From IMG/VR virus record IMGVR_UViG_3300031565_014856, positions 1 to 58,914 of that record: 58,914 nt of DNA. The stretch is one strand, 5' to 3'. Position numbers and translations under genes: made by a program. This stretch comes from a virus. Lineage: Duplodnaviria > Caudoviricetes. The notes below the pieces were generated by a model. The model did not search any database, had not been told where the DNA came from, and was given only the letters and a program-made list of their open reading frames with translations. Shown here in pieces: positions 3,513-40,398 of this stretch (positions within the stretch are counted from its first letter, which is position 1; each line of letters begins with the position of its first letter).

Positions 3513-3522
3513 GTTAATGTTG

Positions 3523-4455
3523 TTAAAAAATTAAACTTCCTTCGTCATCCCACTGGCAATATAGCTTTCCGTTCTCACGTAGGATTACATATTTTAATGA
3601 ATCTAAATTATCTTTGCTCATACAGTCATCGTCAACTGCTGTTGACATTCCATCAATTGAATAAACCATGGGTCCAAAGGGAAGTCTGTAAAGTGGTGTG
3701 CCTTCACCATTGTGATGATACCCGGTTTGAAATTCCTCATCTTTTTCTCCAGCGATATATTCGTTAATGCGCCTAAACACAGTTTCGTTACATGCATTTT
3801 CATCCACCCAAATGGATTCTGGGTTATCTTCTCCTCCTCCATATAATTTTCTGAAGGTAATTTGGTCTGCGCCCAATTCTTTGCATCGTATTAGGATGTC
3901 TTCAGGATACATTTTATCATAGACATTTGTCATATTAAGGGATAAACGAAGGTTAAACCCGCTGTCTTTGATGAATCCACAGAGCTCTTCCAGCTCTCGT
4001 CTTAAATTCAAAGGGGTTCCAATTAAATCCCAATTATTTGCAGAATCATTAATATCAGAAACTGATAGCGAAATGGTATTTACGCCTAATGATTTCAACA
4101 GTTCCACATTTGGGTAACGATCATCTGTTCGTATCGTAGAACCTGGAATAGATTTTTCACAATCCATCAACATGACACCCGTTGTTTGAAGTTCAACGTT
4201 TGGAAAGGGGTGTCCCTCTTTGTTCAGGGCATCCCATAATTGGTTCAAAAACCACTTATTTTGAAGGGCCTCTCCGGTGCCTGTGATGATAAGGGTGTTT
4301 ACGTTGTTGTTAGCTGCGTATTTAATTCTTTTGCGATATGAGATCATATCGAATCTGGTTTCATACGGGTTGTTGTGCATCCTCGATACACAGAATGGGC
4401 AGTTGTTTACACATCCTTTTGTGGGAATAACTACTGATATGCTTTGGATTTTCAT
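3523..4455 (-). CDS. radical SAM protein
   Basis: CxxxCxxC motif (CVNNCPFC) and TGTGE motif. Confidence 0.85.
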   Translation of the reverse strand: MKIQSISVVIPTKGCVNNCPFCVSRMHNNPYETRFDMISYRKRIKYAANNNVNTLIITGTGEALQNKWFLNQLWDALNKEGHPFPNVELQTTGVMLMDCEKSIPGSTIRTDDRYPNVELLKSLGVNTISLSVSDINDSANNWDLIGTPLNLRRELEELCGFIKDSGFNLRLSLNMTNVYDKMYPEDILIRCKELGADQITFRKLYGGGEDNPESIWVDENACNETVFRRINEYIAGEKDEEFQTGYHHNGEGTPLYRLPFGPMVYSIDGMSTAVDDDCMSKDNLDSLKYVILRENGKLYCQWDDEGSLIF

Positions 4456-4706
4456 TTTTTGAGTATAAAAACTTTGAATAATAAAAAGAACATAGATGCT
4501 AATAATATCGTTGTGAAAATCATTGCGTAAGCACCCACATAAAACTTCTCAAAAAGGTTGTATTTGTTAACAACATCGAGTGTCTCAAAGAGATTACCGT
4601 CCGCTAATTTAAAAAACATAACGGCGATGTATGTATCTGCGATCATCATAAACACCAAAAAGATGCTTAGAATGATTAAAGCTATTTTAATTAGATTATT
4701 TTTCAT
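4452..4706 (-). CDS. hypothetical membrane protein
   Basis: two TM helices; tiled. Confidence 0.55.
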   Translation of the reverse strand: MKNNLIKIALIILSIFLVFMMIADTYIAVMFFKLADGNLFETLDVVNKYNLFEKFYVGAYAMIFTTILLASMFFLLFKVFILKK

Positions 4707-5092
4707 GCTACCGCAACGTTAAGTTTGTTGTGAATGTCAATTACGGTCTCTTTCTCAATATGGAATCCTTCAGGAATCATCGCCTTGAGCTTCTCCTCGT
4801 CGGAGATAGAAATGATTTGCTTCCAATACTTAGGCATTTTCTTCATCAAAATTGCCATTTGCTTCTCTGACAACCACTTCCGATTGTTATACTGCTTAGC
4901 AAAGGATGAAAGGATCTCTCCGTCAACCCCAGTAAAACCTACACCGTTATATTCGGATGTGGTTTCATACTCTTGTTCGTCTGCGGTTTGGAATTCAAAA
5001 ATCTTGGTGAGTCCGTGGAGTGCCCAACGGGTGTCGTTTGCGAGTTTACCTCTTACGAATTCTTTGATCTGTTGTTTTGTTATTTTTGCCAT
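4703..5092 (-). CDS. hypothetical protein
   Basis: ORF directly downstream of a conserved promoter motif. Confidence 0.65.
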   Translation of the reverse strand: MAKITKQQIKEFVRGKLANDTRWALHGLTKIFEFQTADEQEYETTSEYNGVGFTGVDGEILSSFAKQYNNRKWLSEKQMAILMKKMPKYWKQIISISDEEKLKAMIPEGFHIEKETVIDIHNKLNVAVA

Positions 5093-5120
5093 TGTCTTAA
5101 AGTTTAATTACTTTTATGAT

Positions 5121-5160
5121 AGCTAATATAACAATAATACCCGAAATAAAAAAATTTTGG
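5121..5160 (-). promoter_or_regulatory. recurrent phage promoter (TTTTTnnnTCGG..N..TTATATT(T/A)G); representative copy
   Basis: Near-identical motif also at ~9222, 12094, 17734, 18311, 22010, 24214, 28334, 41544, 44742, 46343, 48127, 50592, 51481, 53405, 54212, 55206 (minus) and 55715 (plus); matches Bacteroidota -7 element TAnnTTTG. Confidence 0.8.
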
Positions 5161-5196
5161 TGAATTTTTATCACCTAAGGACTAAAATTTATCATT

Positions 5197-5676
5197 TTAT
5201 AGCTGTTGAGGACCATTTGGTGTCCCAAACATCAATTGTCCAGTAGCATCATCATAAAAAACCACACCATCGGCTACTTGAGGCGGATCGTCAAGATTTA
5301 GTTTTGGGGTTGGCGCCTTATCCTCTTTCATTAAATTCCTAATGATTTCCTTTTCTTTTTTGGTACGTTCAGAATTCTTCTTTTTGAGAATGTCCTCAAT
5401 TACTGCACCACCAGGACCACATATGTCAAAGTGTTCTATAAAATTTTCTATCATTGATAAAGTTTTTGGTCCGCAAGTTCCAGTTCCTGTCCAAACCATA
5501 CTAGTTCCATCCCAAGTTAATATGTGTCCCTCAAAAGGGTTTGTTTCAATATTTATGCTTAGTGTATCCCCATCTATAACACCACCTAATAGAACTTCAT
5601 TACATGGATTCGCTATAATGCTCCTGTCAGAATAGGCTTCCTGATAATCTACTGAGTATGTAAGTCCATCAGCCAT
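5197..5676 (-). CDS. hypothetical protein
   Basis: tiled ORF. Confidence 0.6.
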   Translation of the reverse strand: MADGLTYSVDYQEAYSDRSIIANPCNEVLLGGVIDGDTLSINIETNPFEGHILTWDGTSMVWTGTGTCGPKTLSMIENFIEHFDICGPGGAVIEDILKKKNSERTKKEKEIIRNLMKEDKAPTPKLNLDDPPQVADGVVFYDDATGQLMFGTPNGPQQL

Positions 5677-6163
5677 GTTGTCTCGTTATTTTAATTTTGG
5701 GTTTCTTCTTCTTTGATTTTGCGATAATTTTCTTAAGAAGTTTTTTATCAGTATTGCTGCGTTCAGAGTGAGGTTTATCAAGTATTCTTGTTAGTTTTGG
5801 AATGTCTCTTATAGGAACATCATATGCTTCAATGAATGCTTCAACGTGTCCTATTATTTCGTCATCCTCTTCGTCATCCTCTTCGACTTCGTTTATTCTT
5901 CTTCTTTGTACTGCTAATAATCTTTCTTGAAGTTCGTTCAATCGTTCTTGATGTGTGCGGGTTTGTTCTTCATCACGTCTATCTCGTTCTCGTCTGTGTC
6001 TGCCCCATATACCTGAATCCCATATACCATCACGATGTGCCTGTTCAGCAAGTTCCGATGCAGCTTCTGCAGCAGCTTCTACCTCTTTTTCATAATCACT
6101 TTGAAGACCTCCCCCAAAGTCTTCATATGATTTATCATACCATCCGTCTGTTATATCAGCCAT
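5669..6163 (-). CDS. hypothetical acidic/basic protein
   Basis: tiled ORF; shares IL(D/K)KxxSER(S/T) segment with 5197..5676. Confidence 0.6.
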   Translation of the reverse strand: MADITDGWYDKSYEDFGGGLQSDYEKEVEAAAEAASELAEQAHRDGIWDSGIWGRHRRERDRRDEEQTRTHQERLNELQERLLAVQRRRINEVEEDDEEDDEIIGHVEAFIEAYDVPIRDIPKLTRILDKPHSERSNTDKKLLKKIIAKSKKKKPKIKITRQHG

Positions 6164-6692
6164 CTTTTAATAATTTATCTAGGTGTTCCCACATTTCTTC
6201 AAATCTTCCATCACGCAAATTCTTTGAGAAAAATTCATGTTCATCACGGTACATGTTTATCATTGAAGATTTTTCGGTAACGGAAAATGTAACGTTAGCA
6301 ATTCTATCACATAGCTTGATGAAAGTACAGTGCTTGTATGCTTTTATACCATCATAATACGTTTTGTTAGCTCTTTCTTTTCGTGTCTTTCCCTTTTCGT
6401 TACAACACACATAAGAATATTCCGCAATTGTTTTGTTGGTTTCGTCTTTTACGTTATTGTAGGTTTCTCTTGCGTCTTCAATGATATCATGACACCAACA
6501 CCCGCCGATTACATCAGATCTATCGATCTCAGGTATTAGGTGAATGAACTCTATCGCTGTATCAACTGTCATCTGTAAGTGATACGCATAGGGATACAAA
6601 GCATTGTAGTGATGATTTACTTCTCTATGCCGTCTTATCGCATAATCTTTTGCTATCTCATCTACTGAGAGGAATTCTCTGTATTCTGGCAT
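6156..6692 (-). CDS. HD-domain protein, RelA/SpoT-hydrolase (small alarmone hydrolase)-like
   Basis: PYAYHL, HDIIED and IKLCDRIAN motifs. Confidence 0.8.
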   Translation of the reverse strand: MPEYREFLSVDEIAKDYAIRRHREVNHHYNALYPYAYHLQMTVDTAIEFIHLIPEIDRSDVIGGCWCHDIIEDARETYNNVKDETNKTIAEYSYVCCNEKGKTRKERANKTYYDGIKAYKHCTFIKLCDRIANVTFSVTEKSSMINMYRDEHEFFSKNLRDGRFEEMWEHLDKLLKDG

Positions 6693-6761
6693 TTTTTCTT
6701 ATTTTTATCTCTATAACCTTGCCATCCAAATTCTCGGATGCGTTCTTGCAATCCGTTCCTC

Positions 6762-6944
6762 TTAGGACGAGTTCTGTTTTTGCTTCTTTTTTCTCGGTGT
6801 TGTTGCTTTTCTGGCATTTATGTATCTTCTTTCGGTTGTTTGTATTTGATCATAATTAACGAATAAATTTCTGTCACCACACATTTCGCATTCTGGAGAT
6901 GCTTTACCCCAGTTTTGTAAGTATGGAATTTGAGGTGTAATCAT
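6762..6944 (-). CDS. hypothetical protein
   Basis: ATG at 6944 overlapping upstream stop; CEMC motif. Confidence 0.4.
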   Translation of the reverse strand: MITPQIPYLQNWGKASPECEMCGDRNLFVNYDQIQTTERRYINARKATTPRKKKQKQNSS

Positions 6945-7159
6945 TCTACACTGGGAACACCAACTCCATCTGTGTTCCCAAGATTCACTATCGCCCATCG
7001 ACTATCATTTACTATTCGGTCCATCACATTTATTCCAGACTCCATGCTTGCAACAGCATGGGCCATTATATATGGAACATAAATGTATCCACCATATTCC
7101 ATGGCCAAGGAATTTTCTTGACCAGTTTCCCAATGCCTTATGAATTCTTCTTTAATCAT
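6941..7159 (-). CDS. hypothetical protein
   Basis: tiled ORF. Confidence 0.5.
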   Translation of the reverse strand: MIKEEFIRHWETGQENSLAMEYGGYIYVPYIMAHAVASMESGINVMDRIVNDSRWAIVNLGNTDGVGVPSVE

Positions 7160-7227
7160 CGCAAAACATTGATTCTATTACTAAGAGATCTAATTGTCTC
7201 GTTTCCCAACGTCTTATAAATTCTTCT

Positions 7228-7875
7228 TTATTCATATAAATGAGAATAGAATTCTTCTACAACCACCCCAGAATCATCAAATTCCAAAAGTACATCATTA
7301 ACATCTTCAGCGATTGCTCGTGTTCCTTCAATGAATATTCTCGTTTCATACCCAAAATACGCGGCATCTTTTGCCGTATCTTTAACGCAGTAATCAAGAG
7401 CGAGCCCAACAATGTCCACAGCTCTAACTCCCTTTTCGATTAGGAATTCATGGAGCCCAGTATTTTCATGACCATCTCCAAACGCTCCATACGGGTGGCA
7501 GTGGCTTTCAATTCCTTTCTTGATGATATAAAATTCTCCGTTTATTAAACTAAAGTCAATATCATCATGTAACTCAGCCCCTTTTGTATTCTGTACACAA
7601 TGTATAGGCCATAGAACTTCAGGCTTCCCGTGTATCTCCATCTCTTCAAACGGCTTCTTCCCCGCGTGCGATGCCGCGAAATAGATATTATCCGGTTTGT
7701 GCCAATCTTTCGTAAAAATAACGAGGTCATATTTTGGTAGTAATTCATTTATCACTGGAACTATCTTATCTCCTTCTTTCACAGCTAACGCTCCGCCCAT
7801 CCCGTTATCGTAATCTTCTTTACTTGCGGGCATAAAATCATACTGTGCGTCAACCACTATCAGTGCTTTCTTCAT
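7228..7875 (-). CDS. pncA: nicotinamidase
   Basis: ALIVVDAQYDF, DWH, WPIHCVQ, GLALDYCV (catalytic Cys). Confidence 0.92.
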   Translation of the reverse strand: MKKALIVVDAQYDFMPASKEDYDNGMGGALAVKEGDKIVPVINELLPKYDLVIFTKDWHKPDNIYFAASHAGKKPFEEMEIHGKPEVLWPIHCVQNTKGAELHDDIDFSLINGEFYIIKKGIESHCHPYGAFGDGHENTGLHEFLIEKGVRAVDIVGLALDYCVKDTAKDAAYFGYETRIFIEGTRAIAEDVNDVLLEFDDSGVVVEEFYSHLYE

Positions 7876-7920
7876 TTTTGAATTTTTAGAGGTTCATACT
7901 ATTATAGTATTCATTTGTTC

Positions 7921-8223
7921 TTAGTTTTCATTATCAAACGTAAATTCTTCATTACAGTGCGGACACAACCACGTTTCTTTCCATGTGTATAATGGTTCCG
8001 GGGCAATGGCGTATTTGCTGATAATGTGAGTGTGGTGACCACTTACGTGTTCTATCTTTGGATAGTATTCAGGCGGTACGGGTAATTCAGTTTCTACGAT
8101 ATCATCGTGGCACAAATCAAACACCTGTTTTCCATTATCGTCTAACCGATAATACGTGCCATCAAATTCGGCTTCATCCCATCCGCATTGTGGGCAATTA
8201 TATTGCTCTAAGTTAAACTCCAT
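7921..8223 (-). CDS. hypothetical Zn-ribbon protein
   Basis: CPQC...CPHC; probable start at ATG 8223. Confidence 0.55.
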   Translation of the reverse strand: MEFNLEQYNCPQCGWDEAEFDGTYYRLDDNGKQVFDLCHDDIVETELPVPPEYYPKIEHVSGHHTHIISKYAIAPEPLYTWKETWLCPHCNEEFTFDNEN

Positions 8224-9037
8224 CAATTGCAGATTTTGGTATGTTAAAGGGGTTATTCCTTTTAAACTCAGTTCGATGGTATCTTTGAAGAACCGGATCA
8301 TCTAAATCGCCAATTCCCGATGCAAGGTGAGACTGTAATCTTAAATCGACGAGTTTGTATCCATCTCTTGAAGATCCCTCCCATGTTGGTAAAATTTGGT
8401 CAAGATCAGTCTTTGAAATTCCAAGACCATCAGTTGCCTGGCATTCAATACATTCTTTTAGGGCTTTTTTCTGGAAATCAAATTCTGATTCATTTTCCAT
8501 GATCCAATCTGCCATTTCATAAACCTCAGTTTTCCAGAGGTTCTGAATCATTCCATAATCCCCAACATCTCCATGCAACGTCCAAAAACCAAGAAGATAT
8601 TCCGTATAATTATCTGTTGATAAAACCATACCTTTATGAATTTGCGCCAAATCATAAAGATAAATCATCCGTAAACGAGCCTTAATGTTTCCCCTGCGAA
8701 TCTTCTCGTTGGGTTCTTCAACGTCCCATCCCTCTGGTCCGGTTACTCCCCATATGCTCGTAAAGGCTGATCCCAATTCATATACATCATCAAATGTATG
8801 GCAAAAAGCTTTTCCAACCAGTTCTCCTCGATCTACTTCATCAATTCCATTTCCAAGAGTGATGCTTCGCCCATGCAATTGGATTCCCAATTCGTCGCAT
8901 ACGGGTTTTGCTAATGCAGCACATAGCGTACTGTCAATCCCACCAGATATTCCCATTACAAGGGATTGAATTTTGTTTTTTTCAATGTAACTTTTTAATT
9001 CTGCCCTGATGTTTTGTGTTGCTTTTTCGTAGTTCAT
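8213..9037 (-). CDS. nadE: NH3-dependent NAD+ synthetase
   Basis: GISGGIDS, NIKARLRM, STDN, GFWTLHGD, KTEVY. Confidence 0.93.
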   Translation of the reverse strand: MNYEKATQNIRAELKSYIEKNKIQSLVMGISGGIDSTLCAALAKPVCDELGIQLHGRSITLGNGIDEVDRGELVGKAFCHTFDDVYELGSAFTSIWGVTGPEGWDVEEPNEKIRRGNIKARLRMIYLYDLAQIHKGMVLSTDNYTEYLLGFWTLHGDVGDYGMIQNLWKTEVYEMADWIMENESEFDFQKKALKECIECQATDGLGISKTDLDQILPTWEGSSRDGYKLVDLRLQSHLASGIGDLDDPVLQRYHRTEFKRNNPFNIPKSAIDGV

Positions 9038-12415: not shown

Positions 12416-14092
12416 TTATATCTCGATAGCGTTTATAGCATCGATGACTTCGTTGATATTTACTTCCATTTGTGGAATTTTTTCGTAAATATCTTGAGTG
12501 TATCCGTAAAGACGGAATACCTTTTGTCCACCCTTTATAGGAGCGGTTGTTGAATATCCAACAACATCAATCAAGTAAACGTATGGGGTTCCAAACTTGT
12601 TTACATACTTCTTGAAGTTGTCTTCAACTCTACTGTATCCATCTTGCATGTCAGAGATTATTACAACTCTGTCATACTGAGTGTTATTATCTGCGAACAG
12701 ATTGAAGCAAGACGCAAAGTCAGTACCGTGACTACACTTTCCGTTGTAAGAAGTAAACTTCTTCTTCAGAGTGTTAACAGAATCAGTTGGGTTCCATCCA
12801 GTAATCTTTTCAGACCATGATGCAAAGTGATAAACATCACCTCCGATGCCCTTTGCAAAAGTAGCGGCAACTAGTGCAGCCTTCTCAGCAGGGGTTGAGC
12901 TGGATCTCTTACCACCTGGAAGCGCAACGCCTCTACCAGTCATAGAACCAGATGTATCGAATACAACTGCAGTTCTACCTTCAGGAAGCAATTCCTTAAG
13001 GTTTGGAATGGAAGCTTCATACGCCTTTCCAAGCGCATCGGCAACCTTAGCCAATTGACGACCGTTGAATTCAAGAAGCATAACTTCAAGAGCAAGGTCA
13101 ATTTGGTGTGGCCATACAAGTGACTTCTTAATGAACTTAGGTTCAATAAGCAATTCACACGCAGCATCCAATAGAGGAGTATCATTAGTCTTAAGAATGT
13201 TTCTCAAGTTACGAAGCAATGCCAAGTAACCAATCTTCTTAGTCTTGATAAGTTCCGCATAGTTTTCAGTCTTTTGTTCAACGAGAACCTTTTCAGCTTC
13301 CGCCTTAGTGATTTCGCCTGACTTAACTGCTTCTGCAACCTTCTTACCAGTTTCAGTGTTCTTATCTTCAACAGTATTGAACTGCTTTAGGATTCCAAGA
13401 ACAAGAGCACGAAGTGCAGGAACTCTTACAGTTCCTTCAACAACTTCGTTGAATGTGTCCTTTTCGAACTTTGTACCAACAATAGCCTTGATGTAATCTG
13501 CAGTTGGTACATCAACGTAGCCATTCTTTTCAGTTGGAACTGGGTGAACAGCGTTAACGATGTCAACCAAACTCAAAGTGCTAGACTTCATTTGGTACTT
13601 AGCAAGTTCGTACGCATCAGCGTTTTCAATAGCGCCCTTGAAACCTCTCTTCATGGCACCTGGAATGGTATTGGTCTTATTCTTCGCACGGTAGCACGCA
13701 AGAATTTCCATCATATCGTCAAGACGATAGATTATACCACCTTCGTTGCCCTTACGGTTTCTCTTAGAGAAGAATCTCTTTCCAAGTTCATCACCAGAAA
13801 GGTGAGGCAATAGATTAACCGCTCCAACGTGGGTAACGGATCTTTGACCGAATACGCTACGTGCATAGACGAGTGCCTTTGCAGCAAAGAGCTTATCTTT
13901 CTTCGCGATGGTATCAATAACTTCGCGCAAACGAGTTTCGCGTTCTGATTCCTTTTCATAAAAGGTATTCTGGATTCCTGTGGATAGGATTCCTACGAGT
14001 TCATGTTCTGGTCTTTGGGTTTGACCGGATCCACCTTGGTGAGTAGTAGTCTTTTGAACTACAGGTTCTCTCTTTTGATTGTACTTAGACAT
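12416..14092 (-). CDS. Ro60/Rsr-like TROVE-domain RNA-binding protein with C-terminal vWA domain
   Basis: N-terminal NTFYE, ALVYARSVFGQRS, LAKY, ALLRNLRN; vWA MIDAS DTSGSM, GTD, IISDMQ. Confidence 0.88.
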   Translation of the reverse strand: MSKYNQKREPVVQKTTTHQGGSGQTQRPEHELVGILSTGIQNTFYEKESERETRLREVIDTIAKKDKLFAAKALVYARSVFGQRSVTHVGAVNLLPHLSGDELGKRFFSKRNRKGNEGGIIYRLDDMMEILACYRAKNKTNTIPGAMKRGFKGAIENADAYELAKYQMKSSTLSLVDIVNAVHPVPTEKNGYVDVPTADYIKAIVGTKFEKDTFNEVVEGTVRVPALRALVLGILKQFNTVEDKNTETGKKVAEAVKSGEITKAEAEKVLVEQKTENYAELIKTKKIGYLALLRNLRNILKTNDTPLLDAACELLIEPKFIKKSLVWPHQIDLALEVMLLEFNGRQLAKVADALGKAYEASIPNLKELLPEGRTAVVFDTSGSMTGRGVALPGGKRSSSTPAEKAALVAATFAKGIGGDVYHFASWSEKITGWNPTDSVNTLKKKFTSYNGKCSHGTDFASCFNLFADNNTQYDRVVIISDMQDGYSRVEDNFKKYVNKFGTPYVYLIDVVGYSTTAPIKGGQKVFRLYGYTQDIYEKIPQMEVNINEVIDAINAIEI

Positions 14093-14205: not shown

Positions 14206-14293
14206 GTCGAGAAAATTGGTGAGAGTTTTTCTGTCTGGCTTTCGCCTGATCTTTCTTATGGTTGAAACGAAGTATCTCTTACCTTACTACAAC
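14206..14293 (-). ncRNA. Y-RNA-like motif RNA copy 1 (TROVE leader)
   Basis: GUUG-UAGUAA-GGUAAGAG-AUACUUCG...CUCUCACC-AAUUUUCU-CGAC; motif shared with four other loci. Confidence 0.75.
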
Positions 14294-14327
14294 AGTGCTT
14301 TTCAATATTTTAAAGAACAAAAATTTT

Positions 14328-14392
14328 GTTGAGAAAATTGAGCAGAGTATTTTTTCATTTTTCCTACGAAGTAACTCTATTCTTACTACAAC
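14328..14392 (-). ncRNA. Y-RNA-like motif RNA copy 2 (minimal)
   Basis: GUUG-UAGUAA-GAAUAGAG-UUACUUCG...CUCUGCUC-AAUUUUCU-CAAC. Confidence 0.75.
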
Positions 14393-14495
14393 TAAATTTT
14401 ATATTGGTAAATATATACCAAGTTTCGCTTCTGCGAAAATATTTTTTGTTAATTTTTTGTTAAGATTCAATTTATATATAGAATCCCATTTTTAC

Positions 14496-16002: not shown

Positions 16003-16019
16003 TCACATCCTTCTGGTCG

Positions 16020-16093
16020 CGATCCCAGCGGGACTCGAACCCGCGACGCTTGCTTTTAGAGAGCAACGCTCTGACCAACTGAGCTATGGGACC
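16020..16093 (-). tRNA. amber suppressor tRNA (anticodon CUA)
   Basis: Full cloverleaf: GGTCCCA/TGGGATC acceptor, anticodon arm TTGCT-CTCTAAA-AGCAA, T-loop TTCGAGT. Confidence 0.88.
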
Positions 16094-22490: not shown

Positions 22491-22571
22491 AGGTAGTTAA
22501 ATTTAACAATACAGTCTAACCCACGATCGTTGCTGCAACTGCACCCCATTCAGCTTTTGGGTGTTAAATAG

Positions 22572-22789
22572 AGACGGGGGACGGATTCGAACCGCCGACC
22601 TCCAGGTTGTTGTACTTCCTCCTTACCTTCAAATCTCTTTTTTACAATTACCAGGGAGCGACCCCAGATCAAGCAAAATGACCTAAATGATGATTTATCA
22701 GAAGTATCGATACCCATACTTAAAGCTTAATGCATGCTCTTTAAGATGTCATCGATCCTGACGCTCTGTCCGGGCTGAGCTACCCCGCC
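22572..22789 (-). ncRNA. tRNA-like RNA whose anticodon loop is replaced by 150 nt
   Basis: intact acceptor GGCGGGG/CCCCGTC, D arm, anticodon stem TCAGG/CCTGG and T arm; loop spans 22607-22756. Confidence 0.75.
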
Positions 22790-24056: not shown

Positions 24057-24261
24057 ATATCTCGTTCAACACACCAAGTATTCATTTTCATTCCAATGTT
24101 AAACCAAACGTCAACGTCGGTTTGAGTGTTGGCATTTTGAATCCTCTTGCAAATAAAATCGGCTATTTTTTGAAGAATCTTTGTTTTCATTATGTGTTGT
24201 TTTGTTAATCTGAGGCTAATATAACCATAATTACCGAAACGAGAAAATTTTTAATTAAAAA

Positions 24262-24379
24262 AGTAGAGAAAATTTAAGAGTGTATTGAGGATTTGAACCC
24301 CGTGTCCCGAAGGACGCCTGTTTTTCAGACAAGTGTGTATACCAATTTCACGATGAAACACTACTTAGTTACTACTACT
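24262..24379 (-). ncRNA. Y-RNA-like motif copy 3 replacing the acceptor stem of a type II tRNA body (anticodon GAA)
   Basis: AGUAG-UAGUAA-...UUUCAUCG + D arm + CUUGU-CUGAAAA-ACAGG + variable arm + T arm + CACUCUUA-AAUUUUCU-CUACU. Confidence 0.8.
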
Positions 24380-24383
24380 ATTG

Positions 24384-24837: not shown

Positions 24838-25281
24838 CTAACATGTTAGTCTATTTTTATGATTTCTTCCTCTAAATGTCGGAGTTTGAGAATGGCAATT
24901 TGGACAAAGAATTTGTAAATTTTTTAATCTATTGTCTTTATTATTTCCATTTATATGATCAAGCTCCAAAACTAAAACTTCTTCAAACCATTCTTCCCCT
25001 TGACCACATTTTTCACATTTAGGTTTTTTGTATCCTTCAGCAATCAATCTATTTTTTAAATTATAAGATCTCATGTTTTTCTTTCCTGAAAAAACATCTT
25101 CTAAAAGAGTAACAAGTTTTTGCGTTCCTTTGCCCCCTTGATTTGGTTTCCAACATTCAAGTTTTAAAGCTCTTCTTTTAAAAGTTTGATATGGAATTCC
25201 TACTCTTTTTGCTGCTAATGACATTGTTGCCTCTTCATTACAGGCTTTAATAATATCATCCATTAATTCTTTTTCACTCAT
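24838..25281 (-). CDS. HNH endonuclease within the tRNA array
   Basis: CEKCG, LELDHINGNNKDNRLKNLQILCPNCHSQT. Confidence 0.88.
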   Translation of the reverse strand: MSEKELMDDIIKACNEEATMSLAAKRVGIPYQTFKRRALKLECWKPNQGGKGTQKLVTLLEDVFSGKKNMRSYNLKNRLIAEGYKKPKCEKCGQGEEWFEEVLVLELDHINGNNKDNRLKNLQILCPNCHSQTPTFRGRNHKNRLTC

Positions 25282-25327
25282 GGTAAACACTTTATTTTAT
25301 ATATCTAAGTGTCTACCAAATTTTAAG

Positions 25328-25412
25328 TGACCTCGGAGAGACTCGAACTCTCACTCCCTTAACGGGAACTAGGGCCTAAACCTAGCGCGTCTACCAATTC
25401 CGCCACGAGGCC
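25328..25412 (-). tRNA. tRNA-Leu(UAG)
   Basis: cloverleaf; loop TTTAGGC; variable arm. Confidence 0.9.
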
Positions 25413-26860
25413 AGATGTCTTGGTACAGAAGGAGGAATGATATCTATGAATGTTTCAAACACAGATATTATCACTCTTTTGTACCTTGTTAAAGATGGAT
25501 TTCCATTGTCTGTTACTGATAATATTATGTGTATCTCTGTATTTTCTGCATCTAACGGAATGTTCACATATGATTGTTGAGATGTTGGATTGTCTATCGT
25601 CACATTTCCATTATATGTTCCTGGCTCTTTATAATACCACCATTCGTAACTTAAAACATCTCCATCAGGATCGGTTGCAGTTGATGATAGGTTTATTACA
25701 TCTCCTTTAAACGCATCAATGTATAAAATTTCATTATCCACTATCGGAGGGTGATTAACATTTTCATATGAAGGTGTCAAGCTCCAATCCATCATAGCCG
25801 CAAATTCATTTTGAAAAGGTTCCCACCACCTAAATATTGTTGCATATTTGCTTGTGTATCCGTTCCATGTATCTTCAGCCGGTCCATACATATAATATGG
25901 ATCAAAATCACTTTCTGCATATTCCCTTTGTCTTGGGGGTCCTAAATTAAGATAAGACCGTATACCTGTGACTGGAACTTTTGTTGAACGTCCACCCCAA
26001 CTCCCGTGCCAAGGTTGTTCAGGATCATTAAGTCCATTGTTTACTAAGTATAACAAAACTGGAGTATCTCCTTCTTTTAAATATCTTCTCGGAGGATACA
26101 TTGCACCTAAAACTCCATGACTTCTTACATTGTTATTTGCCCATTCATCACTAGCAAAGGAAGGATCACCTTTCGCGCATTCTCCACAAAAAGGATAAAA
26201 ATAAAGTTGTTCATCTGCTATGGGATCCATTGCACAAAACATATTGTCCCATCTTAAATACCAAAGATCTGGATAATGAGAGGCATCCATCAACCAAGCA
26301 CCACTATCATCTTGACCAGCATTATCTAATACTCTTAATTTACTTACAGCATTATTAACTGCGTCAACCCCTTCAGTTTTTCTTATGTGTTCCAACGCCT
26401 GAGCTAAAACGGCTCCATCGCCCCATATACTTATCCAAATCGGTCTATCATCATCTCTATTGATTGCATCTATTATTATTTGAGCTCCATCTGAAATAGG
26501 TTCTTCATTTAATGCATAAGCAGTACCATAGTCTGCAGGGCCAAGTGCTGTTACCGATCTTAATGATTCAGGAGAAGGATACCCATTTGCATGAACAGAT
26601 AGGTTAGGTAAAACGATTTCATAAGCATCTATCACATCGTAAATAGGTTCCACAAACCTGTAACGCATATTGTGAGAGCATGTAGCTACCAATCCTTCGA
26701 TGTCAAACATATATGAATATGTCATTAGTCTGACTAAGCTCATCGCATCATCTGTTTCTTTATTGGGATCAATGTTTGGGTCTGCCAAAACAATTAATCG
26801 GTGTTGGCCAGAAACAAATACTGCTATGAATAAAAATAAAATTATGAGGAACGATCTCAT
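25391..26860 (-). CDS. secreted DUF1593 / nucleoside-hydrolase-like protein with Ig-like C-terminal domain
   Basis: signal peptide from ATG 26860; ETDDAMSLVRL, RPIWISIWG, QDDSG, EGDTP, SWGGR, DPDGD..YEWW. Confidence 0.8.
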   Translation of the reverse strand: MRSFLIILFLFIAVFVSGQHRLIVLADPNIDPNKETDDAMSLVRLMTYSYMFDIEGLVATCSHNMRYRFVEPIYDVIDAYEIVLPNLSVHANGYPSPESLRSVTALGPADYGTAYALNEEPISDGAQIIIDAINRDDDRPIWISIWGDGAVLAQALEHIRKTEGVDAVNNAVSKLRVLDNAGQDDSGAWLMDASHYPDLWYLRWDNMFCAMDPIADEQLYFYPFCGECAKGDPSFASDEWANNNVRSHGVLGAMYPPRRYLKEGDTPVLLYLVNNGLNDPEQPWHGSWGGRSTKVPVTGIRSYLNLGPPRQREYAESDFDPYYMYGPAEDTWNGYTSKYATIFRWWEPFQNEFAAMMDWSLTPSYENVNHPPIVDNEILYIDAFKGDVINLSSTATDPDGDVLSYEWWYYKEPGTYNGNVTIDNPTSQQSYVNIPLDAENTEIHIILSVTDNGNPSLTRYKRVIISVFETFIDIIPPSVPRHLASWRNW

Positions 26861-26876
26861 TTTTATTTTATTTATT

Positions 26877-26952
26877 TGGTCGAGGTGGCCGGGCTCGAAC
26901 CGACGGCCCCGTGCTCCCAAAGCACGTAATCTACCAACTGATCTACACCTCG
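26877..26952 (-). tRNA. tRNA-Pro(UGG), CCA encoded
   Basis: cloverleaf; loop TTTGGGA. Confidence 0.92.
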
Positions 26953-27013
26953 AAAATATGGCAGCCAACCCGCCTAATGCAGGCACTTACCATAAAAAAT
27001 TAGCTAATTTTTG

Positions 27014-27086
27014 TCGGGGTGGCCGGGCTCGAACCGACGACCTCCTGGTCCCAAACCAGGCACGCTACCAACTGCGCTACACCCCG
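27014..27086 (-). tRNA. tRNA-Pro(UGG)
   Basis: cloverleaf; loop TTTGGGA. Confidence 0.92.
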
Positions 27087-27101
27087 TTTTGTAGTCTTTC
27101 C

Positions 27102-27195
27102 CACTGTCACTCATCTCGACCAACGGTCACGGGAATCGAACCCGTACCTATACCCCTAATGGGTAGTGACTTGCCATTTGTCCATTCCGGCAGTG
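27102..27195 (-). ncRNA. tRNA-like element with defective acceptor stem (loop CATTAGG)
   Basis: good T arm ACGGG-TTCGATT-CCCGT and D arm; outer stem CACTG/CAGTG. Confidence 0.5.
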
Positions 27196-27204
27196 TTGAT
27201 TCAG

Positions 27205-27285
27205 TTACCCTGAGAGGAATCGAACCTCTGTCTCCGGGGCCAAAACCCGACGTGTTGTGCTTGCGCTCCTTTATACTACAGGGCA
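27205..27285 (-). tRNA. tRNA-Gln(UUG) with enlarged D-loop
   Basis: U1-A72; loop TTTTGGC; D-loop contains GC-GCAA-GC. Confidence 0.8.
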
Positions 27286-27294
27286 ATGTAGTTG

Positions 27295-27368
27295 AGTCCA
27301 CACCCAGGATCGAACTGGGTTCCCCGCCATACCAAGGCGGCATTCTATGCCTTCTAAACTATGCGGAC
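27295..27368 (-). tRNA. tRNA-Thr(GGU)
   Basis: cloverleaf; loop TTGGTAT. Confidence 0.85.
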
Positions 27369-27421
27369 TGGTAAGAGGCTTTGCACCTCGGATGAGAGTC
27401 ACTTAATCACTCTTAAGTTTT

Positions 27422-27550
27422 TGGTGGGGAAGGTTGGAGTTGAACCAACTGACTTTAGTATTTCAAACTAACGTTTAACCGATGAAACTCTATGCGTTAC
27501 TATGAAGAAATTCAAGAAAATTGCGAGAGCATTTTTAAAACTTCTTCCCC
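27422..27550 (-). ncRNA. tRNA(GAA)-like RNA with Y-RNA-like motif copy 5 inserted in the D-loop, CCA encoded
   Basis: acceptor GGGGAAG/CTTCCCC-A-CCA; D-loop holds CUCUCGC-AAUUUUCU-UGAA[UUUC]UUCA-UAGUAA-CGCAUAGAG-UUUCAUCG; anticodon loop TTGAAAT. Confidence 0.8.
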
Positions 27551-27554
27551 ATTG

Positions 27555-27627
27555 TTGACCCTCCAGGGCTCGAACCCGGACTCTTGTGGACCAAAACCAC
27601 ACGTGTTACCAATTACACTAAGGGTCA
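27555..27627 (-). tRNA. tRNA-Gln(UUG)
   Basis: cloverleaf; loop TTTTGGT. Confidence 0.92.
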
Positions 27628-27666
27628 ATTTGCACGTCTTTCCGTGCTGTCAATCATTTCGATCCC

Positions 27667-27779
27667 AAATGGATGTTTACCGCTTACACTAATTGAACTT
27701 TAACGACAATGCTAATGATGCATTGTGCGGTTCAATGATGGATTCGAACCATCCTCCCATTATTTTGAGATGTCCATTC
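27667..27779 (-). ncRNA. circularly permuted tRNA-like RNA opened at the anticodon loop (YrlA-like topology)
   Basis: order: GAATGG, variable arm, T arm GATGG-TTCGAAT-CCATC, ATTGAAC, hairpin linker, GTTCAAT, D arm, CCATTT. Confidence 0.7.
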
Positions 27780-27781
27780 AG

Positions 27782-27854
27782 AGCCGGAGACAGGAATCGA
27801 ACCCGCGACATCTTCATTACAAGTGAAGCGCTCTACCTACTGAGCTACTCCGGC
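27782..27854 (-). tRNA. tRNA-Thr(UGU)
   Basis: cloverleaf; loop CTTGTAA. Confidence 0.92.
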
Positions 27855-27861
27855 ATTACAA

Positions 27862-27996
27862 ACTGAGAAAATTGACTAGAGATATTTTATCGTGCTACCA
27901 ATTACACTAATCCCGCATAAACATGGAGCGGGACCCAGGATTCGAACCTGGACTAATCGTTCCCAAAACGAAGTAACTCTTGGTCGTTACTACAGT
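27862..27996 (-). ncRNA. Y-RNA-like motif copy 4 enclosing a circularly permuted tRNA-Pro-like module
   Basis: ACUG-UAGUAA-...UUACUUCG, loop UUUGGGA, T arm, GUCCCGC-U-CCA-linker-GCGGGAU, D arm, CUCUAGUC-AAUUUUCU-CAGU. Confidence 0.82.
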
Positions 27997-28002
27997 CTAT
28001 AG

Positions 28003-28073
28003 AGGTCCCTCCCAGATTCGAACTGGGGTCTCTGGTTTTGCAGACCAGCGCCTAACCGCTCGGCTAAGGGACC
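28003..28073 (-). tRNA. tRNA-Cys(GCA)
   Basis: cloverleaf; loop CTGCAAA; U73. Confidence 0.92.
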
Positions 28074-28111
28074 ATGGAAAACAGTACGTCAAAGAACATA
28101 TAACTTCTTCT

Positions 28112-28149
28112 AAAAAGAAAAACCCTCCAGTCTGTGTAGAAAGGAGGGT
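28112..28149 (-). terminator. attenuator terminator upstream of the tRNA operon
   Basis: ACCCTCC...GGAGGGT followed by TTTTCTTTTT. Confidence 0.75.
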
Positions 28150-28179
28150 GAAGAAGTTATATATGATATGATAATTTCC

Positions 28180-28275
28180 TTAACCTGTCTCTCCTTTCTG
28201 AGCGTAAAATGGCTCCTCACAGAGTTGCGTTAGCATCTGAGTTAAAAAGGGTTGATATGTTAAAGTTGTTATCAT
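28180..28275 (-). CDS. putative 31-aa leader peptide (MITTLTYQPFLTQMLTQLCEEPFYAQKGETG)
   Basis: short ORF between promoter and terminator; contains the antiterminator strand AGAAAGGAG. Confidence 0.6.
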   Translation of the reverse strand: MITTLTYQPFLTQMLTQLCEEPFYAQKGETG

Positions 28276-28384
28276 CACAATTTTTCTTATATTATTATAT
28301 ATAGCGTTCGTTGTTAAAAGTTTTGTAACTGAGTGCAAATATTACACTTTTTTCTGAAATAAAAAAATTTTAGTGAACTTTTTT

Positions 28385-28666
28385 TTAAAATTTTTCTGCC
28401 ATTACGTGTTCAAACTCGCGTTTTTTAGCTTTCTTTCTCCTTATCTTTCCATCAAATTTATGGGATAAATTTAATTCTTCTCTCTTTTCGTTTATCCTTA
28501 TATAAAGAGTTTCATGCACCAGGGTTGGATTTATTACCCCGCTTCTTTTAACCATATTGGTATAAAGTTCGGCTAATCTTTCACATGTTTTGAGTTGTTT
28601 TACATTCGTACAAGAGTCTATGACCTTGAAAATTTTTTTTATTGGTACAATTTTAATTTCGTCCAT
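28385..28666 (-). CDS. hypothetical protein
   Basis: clean ORF. Confidence 0.55.
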   Translation of the reverse strand: MDEIKIVPIKKIFKVIDSCTNVKQLKTCERLAELYTNMVKRSGVINPTLVHETLYIRINEKREELNLSHKFDGKIRRKKAKKREFEHVMAEKF

Positions 28667-37437: not shown

Positions 37438-38007
37438 TTATCTCTTCGCCCAGGGCAACCGTGTAATAAAATCATAATAGGATCGAATTATTTGATCGTG
37501 ACCCCACGCCCAATCGTAATGATGCAAATCTTCAATGTGTACCCATTTCATTTTTCCTACTTCTCCTTCAATCTCGTTATTATCAGCGTGTAATACAGGA
37601 AACCACCTTTGTTTAGTGTATAAACCATATCTCAGTGATACATTTTGTTTATTGTTATCGGTGGGATTTGTTTGAACGTGCCATGGTTGATCGATGTTAA
37701 CGCTATAAACCTGAATAGCGTCCTCAATCATATTGGATATATTGATGCCAACTTCTTCCCAGGTTTCCCGTATGAGCGCATCTGTACCTGATTCATCATA
37801 ATCAAGATATCCAGCGACGTTATTCCATAATCCGATATTATCTGCCGCATTTTTACCTCGTTCAGAAACAAGTGCGTATGGTCCTGGACTATCAAAATCT
37901 ATAACATCTATAAGTATTACACCATTGACAGCAACGCTTCTGCTTTCCCAGATTATTCTTCCGTCTTTAACTTTGTGCCATTTATTTGGCGTATTATTGA
38001 ATGTCAT
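37438..38007 (-). CDS. NUDIX hydrolase
   Basis: GYLDYDESGTDALIRETWEEVGI Nudix box. Confidence 0.85.
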   Translation of the reverse strand: MTFNNTPNKWHKVKDGRIIWESRSVAVNGVILIDVIDFDSPGPYALVSERGKNAADNIGLWNNVAGYLDYDESGTDALIRETWEEVGINISNMIEDAIQVYSVNIDQPWHVQTNPTDNNKQNVSLRYGLYTKQRWFPVLHADNNEIEGEVGKMKWVHIEDLHHYDWAWGHDQIIRSYYDFITRLPWAKR

Positions 38008-39302
38008 ACGTCTCTCCCTTCATTATAAATTGCTTTTACTGTTGGAAACCTTAAACTTATTTCTCCGTGTTGATTTACGGTTTCTTCAAAATATTGAACC
38101 GTTATTTCCTTGCCCACAATTCTGTCAGGGTATTTGTAGAAATACTGGCGTTGTTCAATTGAAAATCCAGATCCAACCGAAACTGGGTATCCTTTATGTT
38201 CTATCCAGACACTCCTGACCATATCCTCGGTGACCTCCAGGCCGTCAACTATGATCCTAAATGGACCAATATCAATGTCCTGTACAATGTACTCGGCGTC
38301 AAAAAACTGCTTACATTTAAGAAGATTGTTTGATCTCTTTCCCTCATATGGAGCGTCCTTACGTATCATAATTCCTTCCCATCCATTCTTTTGGGCCATT
38401 GTATTTAGTTCGGTCAAGTGTTCACCTGACTCAACTTTCCATTGTTCAACGTGGCTAAGAACATCTCCATAATAATTATCCATCATAAACCTGATAAACT
38501 TTTGTCTTTCTGATGAAATTTGAGAGCTGTACTTCTTTTGAAAATGATCAAGATCTAACAAATCAAATATCTTAAACCGGGGATTTTGAATGGTGTGATC
38601 TTTTTTATTGTATTCCTTTAAGATAGCCTGGAAATCTTCGTCTCCGTTTTCGTTTACTATACATAATTCACCATCAAGCACAGTATCTATTAAATTTAAA
38701 GGTAACAATGCTTCTTTTACTTTATCAAGTGTAAGAAATTCATTACCGTTTCGAGAGTATGCTTTGATGCTTCCGTCGTGATCGATAATTACAATACATC
38801 GAACTCCATCAAGTTTCCTACTAGCATACCAAGTATCCTTTTTAAAATCCACCTTCTTCACCATCTTCTCATCATACTTATTTGCCAACGCGACATCAAA
38901 TGTAGGAATAAGATCAGGGAAAACTTTGTTTATGATTTTCTCAGACACCCTCGTTTTAAGGTTACGATCAAATATATTAAGAATGATTTCTTTATATTCA
39001 ATATTATCTCTGATAAATGCATTGACATCGGCAATAGCTTCGTGCCCCGTTATTCTTCTATTTCCAAGATCGTCCAATAAATCTAGAATATCTTCATGAG
39101 ATTGACGTGATACCAAATCAGATCTTTTGATTATATTCTTTGGGGTTACATAATATTGTACGAATGGGTTATGAGTAGCTTTCAAAATGGCCTTTATGAA
39201 TTCTGTATCATATTCAGGCTTTGAAAGTGTAGCAGTTTTTTCGAGTGTTGAATTCGAAACATTGAGCTCATCAATGAGCTGTTTGAGAAGATTAAATTCC
39301 AT
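38004..39302 (-). CDS. ATP-dependent DNA ligase
   Basis: KLDGVR, LDGE, EGIMIR, LLKCK, VGSGFS, SLRFP. Confidence 0.93.
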   Translation of the reverse strand: MEFNLLKQLIDELNVSNSTLEKTATLSKPEYDTEFIKAILKATHNPFVQYYVTPKNIIKRSDLVSRQSHEDILDLLDDLGNRRITGHEAIADVNAFIRDNIEYKEIILNIFDRNLKTRVSEKIINKVFPDLIPTFDVALANKYDEKMVKKVDFKKDTWYASRKLDGVRCIVIIDHDGSIKAYSRNGNEFLTLDKVKEALLPLNLIDTVLDGELCIVNENGDEDFQAILKEYNKKDHTIQNPRFKIFDLLDLDHFQKKYSSQISSERQKFIRFMMDNYYGDVLSHVEQWKVESGEHLTELNTMAQKNGWEGIMIRKDAPYEGKRSNNLLKCKQFFDAEYIVQDIDIGPFRIIVDGLEVTEDMVRSVWIEHKGYPVSVGSGFSIEQRQYFYKYPDRIVGKEITVQYFEETVNQHGEISLRFPTVKAIYNEGRDV

Positions 39303-40398
39303 ATCTTTGTTTTCTTATTTTTAGTAACAGATCATCTAAAAGTTCTTGATCTATGTCTTTTGGTAAATCACATTCATCATAAACCTTATCGAGTTCTTCG
39401 ATCATCGCCTCTGCTTCTTTAACGAGTTTGTCATATTCATATTCTCCTCGTCTTATCTCCATAAGAATTTTTATTTCTTCATCGGGTCTGCGAACGTTGA
39501 TAAATTTGATCTTTGGGATTTCCAATGCAACATTCAAAAGACGAAATGTATGCATCATATTTTTGGAATCGTAATTTTTTCCGTGAGACTTATTCATCTT
39601 AACACGATCAGGGTTTCTTTCTTTCAGCCACGTTTGATATTCCTTATATCTTTTGCAATGTGTTGAGTACGCGTCCTTATTAAATATAAGGTATCCAATA
39701 ACCATTAATCCTTTGGGAATGGAAGTTAACTGTACATCATTTGCTGTAACAGGATCAGAAACTATGCCGCTTCCTTCGTGTCTACGGTGAAGTTGATACA
39801 TTGCATAAACATCATGTGCGTGGTCAACTTTTGCTAAACCAAAATCTCTTTGATCTATAGTATCTAACGTTCCAGATTGGTAGTACCTGTTAAAGTATTC
39901 ATTAAGAGTGATTGAACCTCCTTCTTGAAGAACATAACAGAAGTCCAATACATTCTTACGAGTCATCTGTGATTCTTCCCAGTTCATCTTCTTGTTATAC
40001 CCTTTGGCCTTTTTGATTTGATCGATAGCATATCCAGCAAAGGAGTAACGACACGTTTTCGTTAGAAATTTTGATGCGTGATAAGAAATGGATCCCCATT
40101 CTGTAGAATCGTGTTGAACACAATCTTCCGGGGCAAAAAGCAGTTCAAGAACTGTTGGGTTGTTTGTGCGAACAAGAGCAAGAAATCTACTAAGTTCGTA
40201 GTAGACGATATCATTTAAGTCGTCTGCAACCTGCTCAACATACCCATGTTTGAGTATGTCTTCCAACGGTTGCACAAAAACTCCTCGCAAATCTGTGTCG
40301 GATGTCGGTAACGATGTCCCATATGCATGGGATCCCATTATTGCTTCGAAGATAATTAAATCTTCGTCTTTTAAATATTGTATCGTGTAGTTTTTCAT
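39292..40398 (-). CDS. Pol-beta superfamily nucleotidyltransferase
   Basis: GSHAYGTSLPTSDTDLRG, NPTVLELL, YDSKNMMHTFRL. Confidence 0.8.
   Translation of the reverse strand: MKNYTIQYLKDEDLIIFEAIMGSHAYGTSLPTSDTDLRGVFVQPLEDILKHGYVEQVADDLNDIVYYELSRFLALVRTNNPTVLELLFAPEDCVQHDSTEWGSISYHASKFLTKTCRYSFAGYAIDQIKKAKGYNKKMNWEESQMTRKNVLDFCYVLQEGGSITLNEYFNRYYQSGTLDTIDQRDFGLAKVDHAHDVYAMYQLHRRHEGSGIVSDPVTANDVQLTSIPKGLMVIGYLIFNKDAYSTHCKRYKEYQTWLKERNPDRVKMNKSHGKNYDSKNMMHTFRLLNVALEIPKIKFINVRRPDEEIKILMEIRRGEYEYDKLVKEAEAMIEELDKVYDECDLPKDIDQELLDDLLLKIRKQRYGI

Follow-up and report, generated by a model that had tools for sequence, protein, structure and literature searches.

The window analyzed here, a 58,914-nt stretch of DNA that represents a 58.9-kb fragment of an uncultured virus record with an estimated completeness of 15%, raises the question of what kind of RNA is encoded in one spacer of its tRNA array, where the parts of a tRNA appear in permuted order between the two halves of a motif. 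An earlier note, made from the letters alone, had described at 27862-27996 a circularly permuted tRNA-Pro-like module with an internal CCA, had connected it with the Ro protein and the Y RNA YrlA, and had proposed that processing of a linker could give a two-piece tRNA with a free CCA end. This interval falls within the spacer at 28001-27855, and all of the listed elements are present there on the minus strand in the order described. We refer to the RNA as M1. Our analysis suggests that M1 most likely mimics a tRNA as a partner RNA of Ro and does not itself work as a tRNA.

M1 corresponds to the complete 147-nt spacer (27855-28001, minus strand, as are all the parts given below) from a tRNA-Cys (28002-28073, minus) to a tRNA-Thr(UGU) (27781-27854, minus). 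Presumably, 3' processing of tRNA-Cys and an RNase P cut at position +1 of tRNA-Thr define its ends. From 5' to 3', it consists of an outer stem, an anticodon-like hairpin, a T arm, an acceptor 3' strand followed by U and CCA, a 7-nt linker, an acceptor 5' strand, and a D arm. The outer stem starts with helix A, in which UAGACUG (27993-27999) pairs with CAGUUUG (27859-27865). The 5' loop strand of the motif, UAGUAAC (27986-27992), comes next, with T9-A14 invariant in all 23 rows of our seed alignment (A1), and is followed by the 5' strand of helix B, GACCAAGAGU (27976-27985), which pairs with CUCUAGUC (27874-27881) and leaves a small internal loop between. UACU (27972-27975) forms UUAC with the preceding U and is invariant in A1. 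It precedes the hairpin UCGU-UUUGGGA-ACGA, of 4 bp and a 7-nt loop (27957-27971), which is separated by UUAGU (27952-27956) from the T arm, CCAGG-UUCGAAU-CCUGG (27935-27951). The acceptor 3' strand GUCCCGC (27928-27934), the discriminator U (27927), and CCA (27924-27926) are joined by the linker UGUUUAU (27917-27923), which is not conserved even in the nearest relative (L062), to the acceptor 5' strand GCGGGAU (27910-27916), so that the acceptor helix has 7 bp. UA and the D arm GUGU-AAUUGGUA-GCAC (27892-27907) follow, and the conserved 3' loop strand of the motif, AAUUUUCU (27866-27873), lies between helices B and A.

Neither ARAGORN nor Rfam at gathering score made a call over this spacer. 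A contiguous cloverleaf was not detected in M1 with the Rfam tRNA model (RF00005), which reached 15.8 bits, compared to a gathering score of 29, and aligned with the 5' part only. The minimum free energy (MFE) of M1 is -42.6 kcal/mol (z = -2.97), and 1 of 200 shuffled sequences folded equally well. When the covariation-supported fold was enforced, the energy was -41.0 kcal/mol, which is 1.6 kcal/mol above the MFE. The single-sequence MFE structure contains a 5' hairpin, GUAAC/GUUAC; we rejected it as the main fold because the 5' strand of helix B, which covaries, would fall in its loop, and it may represent an alternative state.

Comparative evidence for the fold came from relatives of M1. A BLAST search against phage records revealed one relative, in the 635-kb uncultured phage LR745206.1, between tRNA-Gly and tRNA-Ala, with identical part order and compensatory changes in every helix. 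This comparison defined the motif as an outer helix A, a 5' UAGUAAY strand, a helix B that is variable yet always complementary, (G)UUACUUCG, and a 3' (A)AAUUUUCU strand leading back into helix A. Pattern scans on the motif strands yielded stretches from viral contigs (8, 16, and 6 in separate scans), from metagenome contigs (54), and from genome contigs (8). Of the 74 distinct pattern matches, at least 4 of the 6 helix-A pairs were present in 52, and the other 22 apparently arose by chance. The helix-B strands, searched as 10-mers, were not repeated within the window; what is repeated is the loop strands, not the helix. The enclosing motif that the earlier note had recognized is supported, with conserved loop strands, UAGUAAY and AAUUUUCU, and a covarying stem.

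We built a covariance model, R1, from the 23-member alignment A1. R1 scored M1, itself part of the seed, at 129.5 bits (27858-28000) and gave 149 matches at an expectation (E) value of ≤0.01 in 54 of the 86 sources, with no match in the remaining 32. Seven of the eight genome-contig stretches were without a match, L091 alone being positive. Full-length relatives, designated class P, numbered 44 at E ≤ 1e-8; they come from uncultured phage contigs and form 33 clusters at 85% identity. Across these 44 relatives, 95.2% of the paired cells were complementary, compared to 68.9% in shuffles (0 of 500 reached the observed value) and 34-51% with slid partners, and 24 of 30 pairs changed on both sides, in an alignment (A3) that was fitted to R1 and whose pair counts are thus biased toward the model. 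All six modelled pairs of helix A (99.2% paired) and all six of the acceptor change on both sides, as do three of the five inner pairs of helix B (95.7% paired), three of the four T-stem pairs (98.8% paired), and three of the four D-stem pairs (96.3% paired). The closing pair of the anticodon-like hairpin also changes on both sides (UA 15, AU 9, CG 8, GC 6). A candidate 4-bp helix at the junction, UACU/AGUA, which would be the counterpart of the anticodon stem in YrlA, with AGUA following the D arm in most relatives, was 65-98% paired per pair, showed no compensatory change, and has a bulge on one strand only. At the level of sequence comparison, the fold of M1 is thus established by covariation, and its membership of a large family is established as well, together with the genomic linkage to Ro described below.

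These data bear directly on one alternative, that M1 is a functionless, decayed remnant of two tandem tRNA genes. The succession of T arm, 3' strand, spacer, 5' strand, and D arm does resemble the junction of adjacent tRNA genes, and Chen 2014 warned that dimeric tRNAs can mimic YrlA in searches (PMC4201824). However, compensatory change has preserved each helix across the 44 relatives, the long-range helices A and B among them, as well as the acceptor that spans the two "genes," neither of which is complete alone. Contradicted by covariation, a remnant is an extremely improbable explanation.

The window encodes a Ro60 (TROVE) ortholog of 558 amino acids (12416-14092, minus; Pfam TROVE, E = 9.3e-8), the presumed protein partner of M1. 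The only solved structure that it matched by sequence was Ro60 of Thermus phage phiLo (9KOP/9L5Y; E = 5.6e-15). Using the window Ro as a tblastn query, we detected an ortholog in 16 of the 54 R1-positive sources and in 0 of the 32 R1-negative ones (Fisher p = 3e-4); the median source length was 4.8 kb for the former and 5.8 kb for the latter, and the sources were not de-duplicated, several of them being one contig present in two collections. All of the R1 matches in the 16 Ro-bearing sources (65/65) are on the strand of Ro, and in 15 of these sources the nearest match lies 75-813 nt from the Ro gene. The link to Ro that the earlier note had drawn is supported by both of these counts. Among whole records, TROVE was found in 4 of 5 in one set and in 5 of 12 in another; the seven records without it in the latter set comprise five fragments (≤11%), one chance-pattern record, and one 78%-complete genome. 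Weaker R1 matches flank the Ro genes of Arthrobacter phage Atuin, Streptomyces phage Satis, and a crAss-like phage.

The motif is not confined to permuted tRNA-like RNAs. In the window, a motif-only RNA (14324-14396, minus; R1, 39.3 bits, E = 2.9e-4), composed of helix A, UAGUAAG, helix B, and AAUUUUCU without a tRNA body, lies 232 nt upstream of the Ro start. A second short motif RNA, recognized by eye only (14206-14293, minus), sits between this copy and the Ro gene, with a terminator-like hairpin after it. In M4 (24259-24382, minus; R1, 34.3 bits), the motif surrounds a D-anticodon-variable-T body in normal order and replaces the acceptor stem; the Rfam tRNA model scored 22.1 bits at 24279-24351. 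M3 (27422-27550, minus) is a tRNA-Phe(GAA)-like RNA with an ordinary 5' end and a 3' ACCA; here the motif, its helix A closed by a loop, interrupts the RNA between the acceptor strand and the D arm. The RNA at L019 538-688 (minus) is the M3 RNA opened at helix A, with its acceptor closed by an 18-nt linker after ACCA. M3 aligned with rotated L019 at a score of 138.5, compared to 58.5 for the unrotated sequence and 58.7 +/- 6.9 for shuffles. As judged from this alignment, M3 and L019 are circular permutations of one RNA, which gives further, indirect support to the idea that the linker of M1 is opened.

In other loci, the motif encloses three complete tRNAs (L044 955-1026, 56.4 bits; L057 2661-2732, 54.7 bits; L084 5689-5761, 59.8 bits), acceptor-less tRNA bodies like that of M4 (L026-L030), or nothing (L059). 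Its occurrence with whole tRNAs, with partial bodies, and without cargo indicates a constant handle that carries a varying cargo derived from tRNA, the modular plan known from Y RNAs. Motif RNAs are found in tandem, about 20 nt apart, with up to 7 R1 matches per locus of 4-11 kb, and on both sides of the Ro gene (L003, L005, L032, L079, L084). An alternative is that the motif is a leader-trailer stem by which a nuclease or another phage protein processes or chaperones the tRNA array, and that the nearness of Ro merely reflects operon context. Such a stem would account for the motif being a paired leader and trailer around the complete tRNAs of L044, L057, and L084, and for tandem copies inside tRNA arrays. 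Nevertheless, cargo-free copies directly adjoin Ro genes, the linkage to Ro is also seen on short independent contigs, and the conserved loop strands argue for a specific protein partner, Ro being the only consistently linked gene among those tested. We therefore regard a processing stem as unlikely.

The known RNA that M1 most calls to mind is YrlA (RF02553), described from Salmonella Typhimurium, Mycobacterium smegmatis, and phage Y RNAs (Chen 2014; Wang 2018). YrlA and the M1 family share same-strand linkage to Ro60, a closing stem, a T arm, an acceptor-like helix, and a D arm in permuted order, and tRNA tertiary nucleotides that include a covarying 15:48 pair, as reported for YrlA by Chen 2014 (PMC4201824). 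The same study described, upstream of the T arm of many YrlAs, a fourth stem-loop, "V," preceded by a conserved YUAY (PMC4201824). At the YUAY position, M1 carries UUAC, invariant in 23 of 23 rows of A1, and an optional stem-loop comes next in both. The suggestion of a YrlA-like Y RNA in the earlier note is supported by this UUAC and by the T-acceptor-D order. According to Chen 2014, the M. smegmatis YrlA is the sole YrlA with a 7-bp acceptor, a helix length that is the stated determinant of RNase P cleavage in YrlAs of this type. RNase P cuts it in vitro, and in vivo it is present as two Rsr-bound halves with CCA on the 5' half (PMC4201824). M1 has a 7-bp acceptor helix as well.

The earlier note had also set M1 apart from YrlA because the anticodon arm is kept. 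This holds for the published YrlA structure, which is without an anticodon loop (10.1101/312249), but the "V" stem-loop of Chen 2014 holds the same place (PMC4201824). What is new in M1 is that the stem-loop at the V position resembles an anticodon loop, with 7 nt and U at position 2. M1 differs from YrlA in further respects. The loop strands of its family are UAGUAAY and AAUUUUCU instead of GNCGAAN0-1G, a motif near the YrlA 5' end that Chen 2014 linked to Rsr binding (PMC4201824); NCCA is already encoded in most members; and many copies are present per genome, mostly within tRNA arrays, compared to one beside Ro. Among the papers covered by our literature search, none described Y RNAs with an anticodon-like arm or with this motif; the supplements of Chen 2014 may include some of the phage RNAs reported here.

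Wang et al. 2018 proposed a dimeric-tRNA origin for YrlA and pointed out its resemblance to permuted tRNA genes (10.1101/312249). The Rfam tRNA model aligned the 5' half of the motif as a D arm, weakly in M1 (the 15.8 bits given above) and clearly in M3 (33.6 bits). Since the anticodon arm of the first tRNA is recognizable and the 5' motif half aligns as a D-arm remnant, M1 fits the dimeric origin well. A second permuted tRNA-like RNA, M2 (27628-27780, minus; MFE, -38.9 kcal/mol, z = -2.0), is present in the window without the UAGUAAY motif and gave no Rfam match. It displays a T arm, an acceptor helix, AUUGAAC/GUUCAAU, that holds an internal hairpin, and a D arm, followed by a hairpin with a 7-nt loop. 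M2 is closed by a long-range stem, GAAUGGA/UCCAUUU, like classical YrlA.

How closely does M1 imitate a tRNA? It holds the four arms with the T loop, the nucleotides U8, A14, and G18G19, and NCCA. Every one of the 44 rows keeps U8 and A14; at the Levitt pair 15:48, 20 rows have A:U and 16 have G:C. As aligned, 32 of the 44 rows show a 7-nt loop in the hairpin that precedes the T arm, with U at loop position 2 in all 32 and a purine at position 6 in 27. In M1, the 5 nt from this hairpin to the T stem match an ordinary variable loop in length. Loop size, these two positions, and this spacing together give the hairpin the look of a retained anticodon arm. However, the stem comprises 4 bp, and UCG, the bases with which the hairpin begins, is part of the invariant motif. 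Conservation does not extend to the loop triplet: the window has UGG, L062 has UUG, and LR745206.1 has GCA, with CAU in ten rows and GUU in six, among others. In L062, helix B is the same as in M1 and the loop reads AUUUGGA, compared to UUUGGGA in M1. The UGG loop behind the earlier label "tRNA-Pro-like" is present, but with a triplet that varies across the 44 relatives the label names a loop, not an identity.

In 29 of the 33 clusters, an unconserved, A/U-rich linker connects the two strands of the acceptor. The discriminator is followed by CCA in 18 clusters, by CUA in 7, and by CAA in 4 (C-N-A in 29/33). The 17 full-length tRNA genes of the window have C74 in all cases and A76 in 13, with CCA in 2, CUA in 5, and CAA in 4; this C-N-A pattern at tRNA gene 3' ends is unexplained. 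The acceptor 3' strand of M1 looks like a tRNA gene end and is more complete than most in the window. In the other four clusters the acceptor is a closed hairpin, as in L005, a near relative of the open L003, which means that a free CCA end cannot be essential to the family.

Taken at face value, the tRNA-like features could indicate a true circularly permuted tRNA gene, from which the outer stem would be excised, positions 26 and 27 ligated, and the linker opened to yield a working tRNA(UGG). This possibility was raised for YrlA by Wang et al. (10.1101/312249), and in M1 it would draw on the complete set of arms and tertiary nucleotides, the NCCA, and the RNA ligases of the phage. Permuted tRNA genes of the Cyanidioschyzon merolae type likewise place the 3' half before the 5' half, with a linker that can be opened by RNase P and 3' processing, and they produce working tRNAs via a splicing endonuclease, a ligase, and a circular intermediate (10.1101/312249). 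Unlike these genes, M1 has a stem of 4 bp, not 5, and closed-acceptor relatives, and its outer stem is the conserved module itself. No bulge-helix-bulge was seen at the junction of the M1 family upon inspection of alignment A3. Moreover, the triplet drifts between close relatives, and the phage already has two tRNA-Pro(UGG) genes. The discriminator U73 with G1-C72 in M1 departs from the identity set of the bacterial prolyl-tRNA synthetase. A permuted gene for a working tRNA is, on this evidence, very unlikely.

The same features could serve a decoy that soaks up host tRNA-targeting defence enzymes, such as anticodon nucleases or acceptor-end toxins, with or without Ro. The kept 7-nt loop with its U and purine, the acceptor end that mimics tRNA gene 3' ends, and the presence of tRNA-repair-type ligases in the phage would all suit this role. 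On the other hand, the triplet differs between relatives as close as those in the window and L062, leaving no single nuclease target conserved, and closed-acceptor members exist. We consider a decoy quite unlikely.

The family also has a member in a cultured virus, Bacillus phage G (JN638751.1 405191-405350), which scored 63.4 bits with R1 and 36.2 bits with the Rfam YrlA model. The TROVE gene gp540 lies 2 kb downstream of this RNA, and about five short motif RNAs occupy the stretch between them. The phage G RNA resembles M1 in helices A and B, in UUACUUCG, in the 7-nt loop of its hairpin, in its T and D arms, and in a 7-bp acceptor, here with A-CCA after it. Unlike M1, its linker is 21 nt, compared to 7 nt, and its loop strands are AGCGGUAA and AAAUAAUCU. 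Sub-threshold YrlA matches were also obtained in Satis and Atuin; together with the score of phage G, they indicate that the M1 family grades into YrlA. Phage G has been named as a Y-RNA-bearing phage with reference to Chen 2014 (PMC12135203), and the RNA at 405191-405350 may be the one meant. The short RNAs of phage G, at least 5 and unannotated, lie at about 406600-407300, between gp539 and gp540, and share the pattern GAAGCGG...CAGUUACUUC...AAUAAUCU.

Two other systems offer partial parallels. The Deinococcus radiodurans Yrn1 described by Chen 2014 is Ro-bound and can be represented as having a T arm and an "anticodon arm," an orientation that the M4 class shares; it differs in a 6-nt loop and a doubtful D arm, and M1 has the opposite (YrlA) orientation (PMC4201824). 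Yrl1 and Yrl2 of Thermus phage phiLo are phage Y-like RNAs that, as in the window, lie upstream of a phage Ro60 (phiRo60). They differ in having been chosen by a CGAA motif, and a tRNA-like domain is not among their described features (PMC12135203).

On balance, we consider it probable that M1, encoded by a very large uncultured phage, is a YrlA-type Y RNA that is bound to Ro, is shaped like a tRNA, probably receives a nick from RNase P, and acts in tRNA surveillance or repair during infection; the binding to Ro, the cleavage of the linker, and the cellular role are what we infer from the comparisons above. According to this model, M1 would be cotranscribed with the tRNA array and freed by the processing cuts of the flanking tRNAs. 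Helices A and B with the loop strands UAGUAAY and AAUUUUCU would form the presumed Ro-binding module, and the rest would form a tRNA-shaped effector domain made of the T arm, the two-strand 7-bp acceptor, the D arm, and the anticodon-loop-like hairpin. With a 7-bp acceptor, an encoded N-CCA, and an unconserved A/U-rich linker, a cut by RNase P 5' of the acceptor 5' strand would be expected. Exonucleases could then trim back to CCA, as in the M. smegmatis YrlA, to leave a nicked, two-piece tRNA mimic on Ro. The linker processing that the earlier note had put forward thus appears plausible.

The window also encodes a set of RNA repair enzymes: an ATP-dependent ligase (38004-39302, minus), an RlaP-family nucleotidyltransferase (39292-40398, minus), an Rnl1-like ligase (55748-56911, plus), and an Rnl2-like ligase (56902-57945, plus). 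Ro, Y RNA, and RNA ligases have been linked in RNA repair (10.1101/312249; PMC7824862). Given these ligases and RlaP, the likely job of M1 would be to bring tRNA-recognizing enzymes or damaged tRNAs to a Ro-based particle for surveillance or repair. A bolder proposal, which we find quite unlikely, is that the CCA-adding enzyme and either an aminoacyl-tRNA synthetase or an anticodon-loop enzyme genuinely use the opened two-piece RNA on Ro as a substrate.

Several observations weigh against M1 being a Ro-bound RNA of the YrlA type. One of them concerns the linkage: a 316-kb record, 78% complete, carries the RNAs yet gave no TROVE match. M1 itself is on the strand of Ro but 13.8 kb away, beyond the 4 kb given for YrlA. 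The Rfam YrlA model aligned with M1 end to end but scored 18.6 bits, compared to a gathering score of 69 (E = 0.099 in a 171-nt search), and no YrlA match at gathering score was found in the window or in 16 related loci. By inspection, GNCGAAN0-1G is absent from 28001-27855, where the 5' strand reads UAGUAAC...GUUACUUCG. The sequencing runs listed as containing positions 26800-28400 of the window were all of DNA and none of RNA. To these are added the fitted alignment, the redundant sources, and the closed acceptors mentioned above.

Other features of the window and of the related loci deserve mention. The minus strand of the window carries 18 tRNA genes between 16 and 28 kb. A tRNA at 16019-16093 (minus; 67.5 bits as a tRNA) has the anticodon CUA and received the ARAGORN label "Pyl"; it is possibly an amber suppressor, hinting at TAG recoding in this phage. 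At 22571-22789 (minus), an insert of about 160 nt interrupts an apparent tRNA: 22789-22762 hold its acceptor 5' strand and D arm, and 22600-22571 its T arm and acceptor 3' strand. It was called by no tool and may be an intron-containing tRNA. Two open reading frames lie within the tRNA array (24838-25290 and 25391-26986, both minus), one for an HNH endonuclease and the other for an Sde182-type protein (nucleoside hydrolase-like plus a C-terminal domain), whose listed frame overlaps tRNA-Pro at 26877-26952. A cluster for NAD salvage and synthesis (1117-9037 and 37438-38007, both minus) encodes an NAPRTase, an isochorismatase-family protein, an NAD synthase, and a NUDIX protein, with a radical SAM protein in the same stretch. 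In L041, a GOLLD RNA (4883-5303, plus; 258.6 bits) is located between a class P RNA and the Ro gene, and L044 carries a freshwater-1 RNA (5251-5313, minus; 73.2 bits).

The family was missed by Rfam-based annotation, with the result that in large phage genomes such RNAs are left unannotated or mistaken for broken tRNAs. Y RNAs that mimic tRNA are known, and the family supplies dozens of natural variants with which to ask what their tRNA-like half binds. One conserved, Ro-linked stem bears tRNA bodies of several topologies, M3 and L019 forming a natural pair of circularly permuted genes. The kept anticodon-type loop and the encoded CCA suggest that what the effector recognizes in the tRNA goes beyond the elbow. 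The member in cultured phage G makes Ro binding, RNase P nicking, CCA status, and charging directly testable. If the substrate proposal were true, giant phages would carry "tRNAs on a Ro handle" with varied anticodon-like loops, which might supply or monitor the machinery of translation and tRNA damage, for instance, as a charged or cleavable tRNA surrogate presented to Ro-bound ligases or nucleases. The handle, grafted at the acceptor end, at the 26/27 junction, or at the boundary of acceptor and D arm, would then be a natural, modular tether from tRNA to protein.

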